Below, one piece after another: positions 14,282 through 17,200 of a stretch of 45,685 nt of DNA. The notes below the pieces were generated by a model, which was given only the letters and a program-made list of their open reading frames with translations, made no database searches and was not told the origin of the DNA. Numbering within the stretch: position 1 is the first letter of the stretch; the number at the start of each line of letters is the position of its first letter. Where the stretch lies: positions 1 through 45,685 of the forward strand of contig JBFXGO010000018.1 in the NCBI GenBank assembly GCA_050239825.1, read 5' to 3'. Source of the DNA: a bacterium (GTDB lineage: Bacteria; Hydrothermota; 32-111). Both the position numbers and the translations under genes were made by a program.

Positions 14282-17200
14282 ATGAAGTTGGATTTTAATT
14301 TGAAGAAAAAGCAGATTAAAGACCAATCAACCGAGGCTGTTGATACTACTGCCGTAATATATGCCCTTAAAACCATAAAAATTGATGAGGAGGAGCTCCT
14401 TGGAATAAACAGGGAGGCTTTGAACATACTCTCCACCATCAATGATAATGAGAATATCCTCGCAGGAGAGATTCAGAGGGTTGAAGAGAAGGGCCACAAA
14501 CTCTATGCATCGATTCAAATTGTCTCTGAAGCTGCCGATGTTCTGATTGAGTACGCAAGAAGCTCAAATGAAAAGACGAATGCCGGAATTTATGAAATAA
14601 ACAACATAATCCAGCAGTTGACCGTATTCACTGAGTCGACTTCCAACATACTCTCATTCATTCAACCGTTCAACGAGTACTCGCAGAAGATAGGTTTCAT
14701 AACCGACATCATCTTCAACATCGCCCAGATGAGCGAGTCAGCCGCAAGGAACGCCGGAATAAAAGCATACCATGCGGGAGAGAGCGGAAGAGGCTTTGAA
14801 GTGATAGCGGATAGAATGCTTCTTCTTGCGAATAAAACATTCAAGCTCACGCAGAAGATTCCAGAGGGGATAAATGAGATTCAGAAGCACACGCTCAACA
14901 TAATTTCTATAATAAATCAAACCAAGAGTTCGACAGAGGGGATGAAGAAGAACATTGATGTGCTTTCTTTCAGATTGAAGGATGTAGAAAACAATCTTCA
15001 TGATATAGTTAAAAACTCAGACAAGATGAAGGAATTCATAGCAGTGCAGGATAATAACAAGGCGACGATTACGGAGCTCAACAAGGATGTAAACAACATA
15101 ATCTCCTCCAGCCTTCAATCGAGCGAGAAACTATCAACAATGGTTAAAACTCAGGCAGATATAAAGACCTCGCTTCTCAATCTCATGCAGCAGATAGATC
15201 TGATTATGGATATGATTTCATCCAACAGGAATCTCATGCCAGCAATATCAACCGAAATAAAACTGTTTAAAAAAATCGAGAATCATCTGAAGAACAGCAA
15301 ATACATTTCGGAGCAGATAATAACGATAATTGATGAATTCATTGAAAACAATTCTCATCAGGTCGGGTTTATAACCAAGTATAAAGACACAATAGATTCA
15401 ATCGAAGAGAATGAGCAGATGATACTCAAGAATGTCGGGGAAATAGAAGACAGCATCAACCTGCTGATGAGTTCGGTCAATGACTTTTCATCAAATGTAA
15501 ATGCAGTCACAAAAGATATTGGCGAGATGAAGGTGGTTATTCTTGAACTCAACGGAATCTTCTCGGATGTGTCAAAGAATCTTGATTTCATACTTGAGAC
15601 GAGCAATGAGCTTAAAGAGCTCTCTGATCAGACAAAACTTCTTTCTCTCTATGCTTCAATTGAAGCCGCAAGGGCGGGGAAATTTCAGCAATCCCTGTCT
15701 GTGATTGTGATACAGACGAAAGACCTTATACTGAAGGCATCCGAGGCATCGCATGAGATAAACAAGATTGTCACCAATATGCAGGTGGTCATCCAAAATG
15801 TTGTAGAAATTGTGTCAAGCGAACTGAATTCGGCCAATAAGATTGAATATTCAATAAAGAACAGCAAAGATATAATCGACAATATCAAAGAATCGTCTGA
15901 AAATTTCAAAAATCTTCTCAAGGAAATATACGATTCTGTATCAGCGCAAGAGAAGATACGAAACGATATTCTGCAGACATACAATGGCATTAAAAATGAG
16001 ACCAAAAAGATAAATGAGAAGGCAAATGACCTTTTCAGCATACTGAAGCAGGACCTCTTGAAGAATGATGATTCAATTCACATGAGCGTGGGCATCGAGG
16101 ACAATATGGAAAAGAGGTTCAACATAACCAGAAATCCGGAGAAGAACAGGTTCAAATTTGTAATGAGAAATCTTCCTGTGCACTGGCACCCGTGTCTTAT
16201 CGGCGATGCAACATCAAATCATGTTCTTCAGCTCTACAATGCCGGTCTTGTAAAATTCGGAAAGGACACGAATGTGATTCCTTCTCTTGCGAAATACTGG
16301 CAGATAAATGAAGATGCCACAGAATGGACATTTTTTTTAAGGGAGAACGCCTATTTCCATGACGGGTCGCCCGTAACTTCCGAAGATGTCAAAGAATCTT
16401 TCAAGAGAGTTGTTCTCTCTCCCAATGCTCCTTTTGTCAATATGCTGAAGGGAGCTCAGGAATATATAAAGCACAGAGCAAAGGATGTCGAGGGAATAAA
16501 GATTGTTGACGAATACACGATAAAATTCTTTTTAGAGTATCCGTACATTCCATTTCTTTCCAATCTTGCGGTATCACCGCTGTCGGTTATAAAAAAAGAG
16601 ACTGTCAGATATTCGGACGAACAGATGAAGGCTAATCCTGTGGGATGTGGACCGTTCATGGTGAAAGAGATAAGCAATGAGCATATCATACTTGAATCCA
16701 ATCATCATCACTTTGAAGGAGAACCCTACCTTGACACAGTGGAGATAATCATAGGCAATGAGAATGAGGCATTCGGCACTCTTCTTGAACATAAGATAGA
16801 CTTCGCAACCATTGATGCCGAAAACATAGACACAATAAAGAAAAACAACAGAATTGACATACATGTTATGTCTACGCCCTCTCTCGATGTTCAGTACATA
16901 GGCATCAATATGTCAAAAAAGAATGAACTGACTCTCTACAAGCAGGTGAGGCAGGCTATCAATCTTGCAACAGACAAATCAAGGTACATAAATGAGACAA
17001 TGAATGGCACAGGCCTTGCCGCGAAGGGAATCTTTCCGCCCACTCTCGCCGCATTCAACAAATCTCTGCAGGGTTATCAATACAATCCGCATAAGGCAAA
17101 GGACCTGATGAAAGAGGTTGGCCTCGGAGAAGGAATCAAGCATTATTTTGAAATGATTTGCTCTGATACTGAGAGAGTTGTAAAGAGAGCGGAGATGCTT

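Follow-up and report, generated by a model that had tools for sequence, protein, structure and literature searches.

The window analyzed here, a stretch of 45,685 nucleotides, carries on its forward strand a gene for a chemoreceptor without membrane segments, with two signaling hairpins and one peptide-binding-type sensor domain in each chain, which probably folds back on itself to mimic a dimer. The gene is followed by co-oriented chemosensory genes, and the features on which the following discussion depends are these:

14249..17638, + strand, receptor gene, taken from the list of open reading frames and its translation (longest open reading frame, 1129 aa)
14387..14773, + strand, helix N1, the descending helix of hairpin 1 (residues 47-175; AF2 DSSP)
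14726..14830, + strand, tip 1 motif QMSESAARNAGIKAYHAGESGRGFEVIADRMLLLA (residues 160-194, in frame)
14780..15220, + strand, helix C1, the ascending helix of hairpin 1 (residues 178-324; AF2)
15221..15232, + strand, distal turn linking hairpins 1 and 2 (residues 325-328; non-helical in both AF2 models)
15233..15673, + strand, helix N2, the descending helix of hairpin 2, with a canonical CheW/P5 stripe (residues 329-475; AF2)
15629..15730, + strand, tip 2 motif QTKLLSLYASIEAARAGKFQQSLSVIVIQTKDLI (residues 461-494, in frame)
15686..16117, + strand, helix C2, the ascending helix of hairpin 2 (residues 480-623; AF2), followed by a linker of ~10 residues
16148..17635, + strand, C-terminal SBP_bac_5 (DppA-like) domain (residues 634-1129; Pfam E 3.6e-83 over 676-1041)
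17604..18029, + strand, cheW (Pfam CheW E 2.1e-26), whose start overlaps the 3' end of the receptor gene
18040..18408, + strand, cheY, a single receiver domain (Pfam Response_reg E 8.3e-31)
18410..20296, + strand, cheA, with domains P1-P5 (Pfam Hpt, P2, H-kinase_dim, HATPase_c, CheW)
20300..20914, + strand, cheC/cheX-type phosphatase (Pfam CheC E 6.2e-22, CheX E 7.6e-09)
20917..26382, + strand, co-oriented genes for a 905-aa TPR protein, a DUF4388 (PATAN) protein, and three Roadblock/LC7 proteins (Pfam)

The true start of the receptor is likely the ATG at 14282, which gives a product of 1118 aa, lies ~7 nt downstream of an AAAGGA, and is also the first residue in homologs and in the ESM Atlas record. 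According to Pfam, two MCPsignal matches are followed by the DppA-like SBP_bac_5 domain. In a six-frame scan of the genome, MCPsignal (PF00015) matched 14549-15100 with 69.7 bits and 15545-15991 with 52.4 bits, each stretch separately exceeding the curated cut-off of 34.6 bits, which bears out the claim of the initial annotation that two MCP hairpins stand in tandem in one chain. No transmembrane or hydrophobic segment was found anywhere in the receptor, where the highest Kyte-Doolittle 19-residue mean is 1.03, compared with maxima of 2.55 and 3.00 in the transmembrane MCPs of the same genome. Moreover, the methylation-type motif, whose consensus we take to be [ASTG]xx[EQ][EQ]xx[ASTG][ASTG], is absent from residues 1-640 and occurs 4 and 5 times in the canonical MCPs of the genome; adaptation of this receptor by CheR and CheB is therefore unlikely. 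Searching the ESM Atlas with the receptor returned generic MCP clusters only.

The receptor gene lies directly upstream of cheW-cheY-cheA, and this cheA is the only one found in the genome, whose che set also includes cheC, cheD, cheR, and cheB. This arrangement recurs, as cheA is located downstream of the fusion gene in 41 of 50 related loci, and in most related loci the TPR gene follows cheC/X. The 99%-complete genome contains three CheW-domain matches, namely the 141-aa CheW, a single-domain CheW of 245 aa, and the P5 domain of CheA, which is the only match in a CheA-sized frame. No flagellar genes (flagellin, FliG) were found in the genome and type IV pilus ATPases are present, so that the output of the pathway is probably pilus-based motility or polarity. 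No genome with this receptor as its sole MCP was seen: in the phylum sample, all 13 genomes of the same family have 4-5 MCPsignal matches. At the source, these proteins are currently named "ABC transporter substrate-binding protein"; in many genomes of WOR-3, TA06, and Stahlbacteria, however, they are the receptors encoded in the operon of the only chemosensory pathway, and their annotation can be corrected to chemoreceptor.

Both hairpins can be aligned along almost all of their length with the genome's canonical receptors, at E 7e-22 and 1e-20, and both equal them in length, the canonical MCPs having 155 and 157 residues beyond the tip. The homology between the halves is visible by profile comparison only: pairwise BLASTP of one half against the other is not significant (E 0.2), and hhalign of the two half profiles places tip on tip with a probability of 98.1% and E 1e-13 over 181 gapless columns at 12% identity. 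The distal turn between them tolerates indels of +1, +2, -6, and -7 residues in the family alignment and is rich in P, G, N, and D; because these indels are non-heptad, the junction reads as a loop.

To compare the tips, Tsr numbering was transferred from gapless phmmer matches to chain 6s1k_E, in which residues 132-208 correspond to Tsr 345-421 for tip 1 and residues 440-550 to Tsr 353-463 for tip 2. Tip 1 retains Asn381, the G-x-x-G-x-G turn, Phe396, and a canonical start of the C helix, and has lost most CheW/P5 contact residues, its stripe on the tip-proximal part of N1 having diverged to S164, R167, N168, I171, K172, Y174, and H175. Tip 2 has a canonical N helix, with Q461, L464, L467, I471, E472, A474, and R475 conserved on N2, and at this tip Asn381 is replaced by Tyr and Phe396 by Leu, and the glycine turn is absent. 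This matches the proposal in the initial annotation that copy 1 keeps the distal half of the canonical tip and copy 2 the proximal half.

The same annotation asked whether the complementary pattern is conserved in homologs, and we examined it in a family set of 38 non-redundant relatives from WOR-3, TA06, Stahlbacteria, and Cloacimonadota. Measured as identity to the canonical MCP encoded on contig C18 of the genome, the receptor scores 9/25 in the N helix and 10/21 in the C helix of copy 1, and 13/25 and 3/21, respectively, in copy 2. The reciprocal relation, in which copy 1 has the better C helix and copy 2 the better N helix, holds in 30/38 relatives when they are compared with this MCP and in 24/38 when they are compared with the other canonical MCP, the exceptions being mostly ties. 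The N helix of hairpin 1 still shares 8-9 of 25 residues with canonical MCPs.

At single positions the division is much cleaner. Tsr position 380 is R in copy 1 and L in copy 2 in all 38 relatives, position 381 is N and Y, and position 396 is F (F183 of the receptor) and Leu, again in 38/38 for each copy. Position 385 is K (24) or T (14) in copy 1 and E in copy 2 (38/38), and position 388 is H in copy 1 (38/38) and R (33) or K (5) in copy 2. The glycines at 393 and 395 are invariant in copy 1 (38/38), copy 2 being variable at both positions across the relatives, and position 404 is variable in copy 1 and K (33) or R (2) in copy 2. At the level of sequence, then, the complementary pattern is real, moderate by crude identity and sharp at single positions.

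How these differences relate to function can be read against the CheW contacts common to both published core-unit models, namely Tsr I377, L380, N381, V384, R388, and R404 (PMC13098124, Table 1). The residues at these six positions are L, L, Y, I, R, and K in hairpin 2 and S, R, N, I, H, and L in hairpin 1. Counted in Tsr numbering, hairpin 2 retains 5/6 of the published CheW contacts and 5/6 of those to CheA-P5, whereas hairpin 1 retains 2/6 in either set and in addition has Asn381, Phe396, and the glycine turn. Asn381, which hairpin 1 keeps, is itself among the listed CheW and P5 contacts. The small core positions 379, 382, 386, and 389 remain small in both copies, which confines the divergence to the exposed contact stripe. 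In addition, both tips are nearly invariant, with many columns 38/38 in each, across relatives that share only about 20-25% identity overall. The initial annotation had described these changes as degeneration, a term that does not hold: the divergent surfaces are almost invariant and the small core is kept in both copies, a combination that points to specialization under selection instead of decay.

A further possibility, which takes degeneration literally and in which one hairpin is the decayed remnant of a duplication and serves as a passive spacer while the other signals alone, is very improbable: the halves are only 12% identical with a pairwise BLASTP E of 0.2 and neither tip is fully canonical, but the 38/38 tip columns, the nearly full-length alignment of each hairpin with canonical receptors, and the separate Pfam scores all speak against it, as does the inability of a lone hairpin to make a four-helix bundle.

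Regarding the sensor, the C-terminal domain matches E. coli DppA chains with E of about 1e-65, and its Foldseek matches 1dpe, 3m8u, and 5u4o have target TM-scores of 0.75-0.90. In the DppA precursor, D436 is the Asp that binds the amino group of the peptide and R383 the Arg that binds its carboxylate. The former aligns with receptor D1024, which is invariant in 28/28 sequences, and the latter with receptor D973, so that the Arg is not retained; PDB entry 8z1z is a DppA mutant carrying R383D+D436R. No export signal, either signal peptide or lipoprotein anchor, was found for the domain, which is preceded by ~630 soluble coiled-coil residues, and a solute-binding domain that has neither a signal peptide nor a membrane segment should sense inside the cell. 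The ligand would be cytoplasmic and peptide-like, with a free amino group. The pairing of a family-5 solute-binding protein with an MCP has a counterpart in E. coli, where DppA feeds Tap (PMC8050422); there, however, DppA is exported to the periplasm as a protein of its own and binds to a transmembrane receptor, whereas the present domain is the C-terminal part of a receptor chain that has no membrane segment.

The predicted fold was obtained from AF2 monomer runs that used a 28-row alignment. The full-length model (pLDDT 84, pTM 0.66) has long helices at 47-175, 178-324, 329-475, and 480-623, and the receptor module alone gave pLDDT 85.3 and pTM 0.61; the least confident parts of both are the tips, whose block means are 55-67 for the full-length protein and 72-79 for the module. 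Geometry of the bundle was read with the VIA aligner, as Foldseek returned only solute-binding protein matches for the full-length model and poor global matches for the module alone. The model superposes on 6z0c_A, a single-chain four-helix bundle, over 198/199 residues (Z 17.3, rmsd 2.6 A, range 98-504), and on 1yo7_B, a single-chain ROP, over 120/120 residues (Z 12.3, rmsd 2.1 A, range 112-485). Since these four-helix-bundle matches cover both tips, the model helices lie side by side with the tips adjacent. Tsr chains align over ~300 residues across the model range 5-574, with N1 paired with C2, and 306/307 residues of T. maritima 2ch7_B superpose on hairpin 2 (Z 13.5, rmsd 3.8 A).

On these models, hairpins 1 and 2 would pack intramolecularly into one four-helix bundle. 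The initial annotation had proposed such a bundle, and the part of its claim that stands is the placement of both tips at the same end in the AF2 models; that the partners come from one chain is a monomer prediction, and runs of this kind give intermolecular dimers no chance to form and are prone to packing helices together. Prediction of a complex between the receptor module and CheW scored 0.01 against a mark of 0.32, a result that counts neither way on binding.

The most serious alternative is suggested by DosM (Vibrio cholerae VC1403) and the F9 class, which, like the receptor described here, are soluble and carry two tandem MCP signaling domains in each chain. DosM is the only receptor with two signaling domains to have been studied by cryo-tomography and is described as a long rod that ends in a tip on either side; soluble receptors can also form two-layer cytoplasmic arrays (PMC7534058). 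By analogy, two parallel chains of the present family could pair hairpin 1 with 1' and 2 with 2' in a rod of ~44 nm whose two ends would bear unlike tips and whose middle would carry both solute-binding domains; tip 2 would sit on the CheA/CheW baseplate and tip 1, its stripe altered, would bind something else, for example the TPR protein, the PATAN protein, or the second CheW. Besides the precedents of DosM itself and of the two-layer arrays, the strong selection on both tips, as if each had a partner of its own, agrees with this arrangement.

Four sensor-less soluble proteins with two MCPsignal matches (P0064, P0093, P0135, and P0053), which we call DosM-like by their architecture, are 631-646 aa long. 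Their tip spacings are 300, 300, 300, and 296 residues, against 300 in the receptor, with whose module they align colinearly over both tips, and the family may descend from such rods. However, all 8 of their tips are complete (N helix 11-16/25 and C helix 11-14/21 against canonical MCPs, with F396 and R404 in 8/8), unlike the complementary halves of the receptor family. In a rod, a homodimeric tip 1 would have both N helices stripped of the CheW/P5 stripe, and a homodimeric tip 2 would have two C helices with neither glycine turn nor Phe pair; the sensor-less proteins keep all these features at both tips. Two other features offered no discrimination: helix length co-variation between subfamilies is uninformative, as all indels are distal and the DosM-like spacing is equal, and the same is true of a midpoint helix break, because the DosM-like proteins are also polar or glycine-rich there.

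The genomic setting differs as well. A triple-CheW protein (CheW3) is described as the second signature component that accompanies DosM, and 98% of DosM homologs are reported to have no sensor (PMC9321776). By contrast, the receptor family always has the SBP_bac_5 domain fused, no triple-CheW protein was found in the 99%-complete genome, which has two single-domain CheW genes and CheA-P5 only, and flagellin and FliG are likewise missing from it. The non-heptad indels at the C1-N2 junction also speak against a rod, and to a weak degree so do the AF2 models, which fold back. Taking both sides together, we consider the rod unlikely.

A second alternative keeps the pairing of unlike hairpins and changes only the chain from which the partner is drawn. 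Hairpin 1 would pair with hairpin 2 of another chain, in antiparallel dimers or interlaced chains, so that every bundle is still made of one copy of each and neighbors in the lattice are covalently joined. Such swapping accounts for the complementary tips equally as well as intramolecular packing does, and it has a parallel in Tsr~Tsr, an engineered single-chain receptor that swaps subunits between molecules and whose authors suggest that such swapping may help lattice formation by natural soluble single-chain receptors (PMC4692393). The same authors state, however, that extensive swapping may be absent when CheA and CheW are present (PMC4692393), and the distal turn of ~4 residues in both AF2 models makes the hairpin of the same chain the nearest partner. 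For these reasons strand swapping appears quite improbable.

We return to a single chain folded on itself. To our knowledge, both subunits of the dimer are identical in every chemoreceptor that has been studied. In Tsr, the N helix of the inner subunit lies at the trimer axis and that of the outer subunit binds CheW and P5 (PMC6681711, PMC4692393). As long as the subunits are identical, the roles of a tip residue at the trimer axis and toward CheW/CheA are genetically inseparable, which was the reason for building Tsr~Tsr (Mowery, Ames, Reiser and Parkinson 2015, PMC4692393). Like the receptor described here, Tsr~Tsr has two subunits in one chain, and it was designed to give them separate inner and outer identities, but its subunits are identical, full-length, and transmembrane and are joined by a long linker (PMC4692393), whereas the present halves are 12% identical, are joined by a turn of ~4 residues, have diverged in the contact stripe, and are followed by a C-terminal sensor. 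Natural soluble single-chain MCPs of R. centenum are mentioned in the same article. Beyond that remark, no fused MCP-SBP_bac_5 receptor or natural pseudo-dimeric MCP was encountered in the literature searched.

Our preferred reading, in which we place moderate confidence, is that the protein is a natural single-chain pseudo-dimer whose halves are specialized for the inner and outer positions and which senses a cytoplasmic peptide-like ligand. Helices N1, C1, N2, and C2 (~146 residues each), with two tips and one short distal turn, would form a single four-helix bundle of ~22 nm, as long as the 44H-like transmembrane receptors that the genome also encodes, with both tips at one end. The single DppA-like Venus-flytrap domain would occupy the far end, in the usual place of the membrane and HAMP region, and since it is monomeric the ratio of sensor to bundle would be 1:1. 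The class label 44H used here for the genome's receptors and for TM1143 is that of the published heptad classification. Receptors of this class, such as Thermotoga maritima TM1143 (PDB 2ch7), have a che set with cheC, cheD, cheR, and cheB, as found here, and it is their fold on which hairpin 2 superposes; they differ in being homodimeric, with tips that are canonical and symmetric, and in having methylation sites, for which the present receptor has no matching motif.

With subunits that are no longer identical, the two jobs that each tip residue performs in a homodimer would be divided. We tentatively assign hairpin 2, which keeps the N-helix stripe for CheW and CheA-P5, to the outer subunit. 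Hairpin 1, which has the tight glycine turn, the Phe at the center, and the Asn of the trimer axis but displays a new invariant polar stripe, R-N-x-x-I-K-x-Y-H, would be the inner subunit or bind some other partner. One canonical N helix per chain is enough for the outer role. A pair of Phe residues at the tip (Tsr F396) has been called universal among known MCPs (PMC6681711); with Leu at 396 in hairpin 2, an F/F pair is impossible at tip 2, and the hetero-bundle would have an F/L pair. As for signaling, a cytoplasmic ligand would close the solute-binding domain and shift the packing of the distal bundle, and the signal would reach the tip, which would control CheW and the only CheA of the genome and, through CheA, the CheY, probably toward pili.

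The initial annotation also expected a non-standard array geometry. Because a standard array needs one CheW/P5-competent N helix per dimer and the hairpin lengths are 44H-like, standard geometry is possible. A bolder version of the proposal, which we regard as speculative and unlikely, holds that the receptor is obligately asymmetric and that the polar stripe of hairpin 1 has given up the classical hydrophobic trimer contact, so that trimers would form in a fixed orientation or not at all; a non-hexagonal complex or lattice would then report a cytoplasmic peptide-like metabolite to pilus motility in non-flagellated bacteria of the WOR-3 group.

If the preferred reading is correct, nature has separated the inner, trimer-axis role of the receptor tip from the outer, CheW/CheA-binding role, as Tsr~Tsr was meant to do, and the complementary halves offer a direct handle on which residues matter in which position. 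The family could also show whether one competent outer face suffices for the control of CheA, and how one sensor of the Venus-flytrap type, itself monomeric, can drive a bundle of four helices.

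The receptor is encoded by a single long ORF (14249-17638, forward strand) of 1129 aa, which sets the residue numbering throughout; its true start is likely the ATG at 14282, which is preceded by AAAGGA and coincides with the first residue of close homologues and of the ESM Atlas entry. The initial annotation had described two tandem MCP hairpins here, and both of the peptides it quoted are indeed in the ORF (residues 160-194, nt 14726-14830, and residues 461-494, nt 15629-15730), which Pfam MCPsignal matches in two stretches, scoring 69.7 and 52.4 bits in a six-frame genome scan, each alone above the 34.6-bit cut-off. 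Each half aligns nearly end to end with the cytoplasmic domains of the canonical, transmembrane MCPs in this genome (E 7e-22 and 1e-20). A profile comparison of one half with the other brings the tips into register over 181 gapless columns (probability 98.1%, 12% identity); in the chain the tips are 300 residues apart.

Because the receptor has no hydrophobic segment (its top 19-residue Kyte-Doolittle mean is 1.03, whereas the two transmembrane MCPs reach 2.55 and 3.00), all of it should be cytoplasmic, including the C-terminal SBP_bac_5 domain (Pfam, residues 676-1041, E 3.6e-83), unlike the exported SBP domains of other proteins. This domain matches E. coli DppA (E about 1e-65) and DppA-like structures (target TM-scores 0.75-0.90); D1024, invariant in 28/28 sequences, is aligned to DppA D436, and D973 to DppA R383. 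A family-5 binding protein that signals to an MCP in trans is already described in the case of DppA and Tap (PMC8050422). The sole other SBP_bac_5 match in the genome, at 7545-8618 of contig C20 in a 714-aa open frame, may be an exported counterpart of the fused sensor domain.

The two tips differ on the surface that meets the signaling partners. Tsr numbering was transferred through gapless phmmer matches to 6s1k_E (residues 132-208 correspond to Tsr 345-421, and residues 440-550 to Tsr 353-463), and the contacts were taken from Table 1 of a 2026 review (PMC13098124), which draws on two core-unit models to list the Tsr residues lying within 4 Å of CheW or CheA-P5. Common to both models in that table are I377, L380, N381, V384, R388, and R404 for CheW, and Q374, I377, L380, N381, V384, and R388 for P5. 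Hairpin 2 has Q461, L464, L467, Y468, I471, R475, and K491 at these positions (5/6 for CheW, 5/6 for P5), and hairpin 1 has M161, S164, R167, N168, I171, H175, and L191 (2/6 and 2/6). These differences are fixed in a non-redundant set of 38 members of the family, drawn from 50 aligned sequences after the removal of ORFs shorter than 1000 aa (4/53) and of rows above 90% identity.

Residues at tip positions of the two hairpins (Tsr numbering; counts over the 38 members)
Tsr 380: hairpin 1, R38; hairpin 2, L38
Tsr 381: hairpin 1, N38; hairpin 2, Y38
Tsr 384: hairpin 1, I38; hairpin 2, I36, L2
Tsr 385: hairpin 1, K24, T14; hairpin 2, E38
Tsr 387: hairpin 1, Y19, F19; hairpin 2, A35
Tsr 388: hairpin 1, H38; hairpin 2, R33, K5
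Tsr 393 and 395: hairpin 1, G38; hairpin 2, variable
Tsr 396: hairpin 1, F38; hairpin 2, L38
Tsr 404: hairpin 1, variable; hairpin 2, K33, R2

Since the core positions 379, 382, 386, and 389 are kept small in both copies, the divergence sits on the exposed interaction stripe. The pattern noted earlier, with each copy keeping a different half of the canonical tip, is therefore real in the relatives at single positions, but both versions are under purifying selection, so that it reflects specialization and not degeneration. The pattern is weaker when plain identity is scored over 25 and 21 residues: it appears in 30 of the 38 with one canonical MCP as reference and in 24 with the other, most of the exceptions being ties. 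About 80-93 residues above the tips there is another conserved layer, at residues 84-98 (nt 14498-14542) and Q267, a height at which canonical receptors have neither tip nor methylation sites; L85, A87, E94, and Q267 are invariant there in 28/28 sequences, with L556 and E559 nearly so.

As to geometry, AlphaFold2 was given a 28-row family alignment and modeled the full protein with pLDDT 84 and pTM 0.66; for residues 30-632 it reached pLDDT 85.3 and pTM 0.61. Three short turns join four helices (47-175, 178-324, 329-475, and 480-623) in either model, and the packing of these helices was read from structural alignments and not from coordinates. Two compact single-chain four-helix bundles superpose across both tips, namely 6z0c_A (Z 17.3, rmsd 2.6 Å, 198/199 residues, model range 98-504) and the single-chain ROP 1yo7_B (Z 12.3, rmsd 2.1 Å, 120/120, range 112-485); Tsr chains align over about 300 residues in the range 5-574, pairing the N helix of hairpin 1 with the C helix of hairpin 2, and the T. 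maritima receptor 2ch7_B aligns with hairpin 2 (306/307 residues). Such superpositions are possible only with four helices side by side, so the tips, which are the lowest-confidence parts, are adjacent in the model. The hairpins, as anticipated, are therefore predicted to pack together into one bundle of canonical MCP length, with the serious caveat that predicting a lone chain is blind to dimeric alternatives.

One such alternative is an extended homodimer like that of DosM, the Vibrio cholerae receptor of the F9 class, in which double signaling domains are already known. When the double-hairpin module was compared with 1.84 billion cluster representatives, 915 proteins matched at E <= 1e-10, and among the 150 matches listed we chose four (P0064, P0093, P0135, and P0053) of 631-646 aa whose match covered both tips or fell into two stretches. 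All four are soluble and DosM-like by architecture, with two MCPsignal domains, no other Pfam match above the cut-off, and tip spacings of 300, 300, 296, and 300. The receptor family shares this module architecture, which raises the prior of a rod; however, the eight control tips are canonical on both helices (N 11-16/25, C 11-14/21 against this genome's MCPs), with F396 and R404 kept in 8/8 and N381 and R388 in 7/8. Judged from these sequences, double receptors of the extended-rod kind leave both tips intact, as homodimeric pairing requires, and the receptor family does not, which leaves the extended homodimer unlikely, if still deserving some weight. By eye, a fifth protein from this search, P0055 (900 aa, in the membrane), resembles two complete receptors in tandem, each of its two signaling domains having a canonical tip and being preceded by hydrophobic segments, another way to place two signaling domains in one chain. 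Strand-swapped hetero-pairing between chains, a further dimeric arrangement, we consider improbable. That one hairpin is a decayed spacer is very hard to credit, as both tip versions are under purifying selection.

No CheW3, the triple-CheW protein that accompanies DosM, was found in the genome (2.1 Mb, 99% complete), and the tips are not complete by the standard of DosM-like proteins; on these two grounds the receptor is best seen as a variant apart from DosM membership. Natural soluble single-chain MCPs are mentioned in one paper, in a passage that does not study them (PMC4692393). In literature searches for fused MCP-SBP_bac_5 or natural pseudo-dimeric MCPs, we found no description of a fused cytoplasmic SBP_bac_5 sensor, of complementary specialization of the two tips, or of this operon-encoded family in WOR-3-group bacteria.

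A word-indexed search for the family returned 35 proteins with E <= 0.001 among 7999 scored candidates, and 28 of them, of 799-1128 aa, carry both PF00015 and PF00496; sources that name these fusion proteins label them as ABC transporter substrate-binding proteins from candidate division WOR-3. When species-representative genomes were scanned, 55 loci came to light in WOR-3, TA06, Stahlbacteria, Cloacimonadota, and unnamed MAGs, with the fusion present in 50. Downstream of these 50, cheA lies within 3.5 kb in 41, in the order cheW-cheY-cheA-cheC/X-TPR; three have only cheW, three have no che gene across at least 2.5 kb, and in three the sequence ends too early to judge.

In the region 12052-28500 of the window, the che operon is wedged between fusA and rplM-rpsI-rpsB-tsf, an otherwise classical translation-gene block, and comprises the receptor, cheW, cheY, cheA, cheC/X, a 905-aa TPR protein, DUF4388/PATAN, three Roadblock/LC7 genes, and another TPR gene. 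Elsewhere in the window, the 1.7-kb non-coding gap from a subtilase gene to lgt holds, at 37340-38660, a long direct repeat in about five copies (241 nt, up to 92% alike, with a 58-nt core spaced 268-385 nt) and has no match to an Rfam family or tRNA. A 1139-aa ORF (42268-45684, forward strand) runs off the 3' end in a stretch where GC is low (0.31-0.37) and GC skew strongly positive (up to +0.29), and has no Pfam match at 1e-5.

The genome encodes two canonical transmembrane MCPs, one CheA (in the window), two single-domain CheW proteins, and six PilB/PilT-type ATPases, one of which adjoins the cheR cluster; cheR, cheD, and cheB are on another contig. This second cluster (on contig C13, at 1504-6960 of the extracted locus and at 4131-4958 of the contig) runs DUF4388-TPR, cheR, cheD, cheB, TPR, followed by a CheW of 245 aa whose N terminus is extended by about 90 residues, and a PilT-like ATPase lies directly upstream. 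The genome gave no match to flagellin and none above cut-off to FliG, so the chemosensory pathway probably steers type IV pili.

In Tsr, as described in PMC6681711 and PMC4692393, the inner subunit's N helix lies at the trimer axis and that of the outer subunit binds CheW or CheA-P5. Pairing of the two hairpins within one chain, the reading we favor at about even odds, would free each from doing both jobs, and the tip pattern fits such a division. With the CheW/P5 stripe and the R404 position kept, hairpin 2 would act as the outer subunit; with Asn381, the glycine turn, and Phe kept and a new invariant polar stripe, hairpin 1 would be the inner, structural one. Each bundle would carry a single Venus-flytrap domain at its membrane-distal end, whose closure on ligand binding would be passed to the helices, and the tip would control the only CheA via CheW. 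No methylation-type motif occurs in residues 1-640, versus 4 and 5 in the canonical MCPs, which argues against adaptation of the receptor by CheR/CheB. The output that this receptor would govern is probably pilus-based motility or polarity, given the pilus ATPases, the lack of flagellar genes, and the presence of PATAN and Roadblock genes in the operon.
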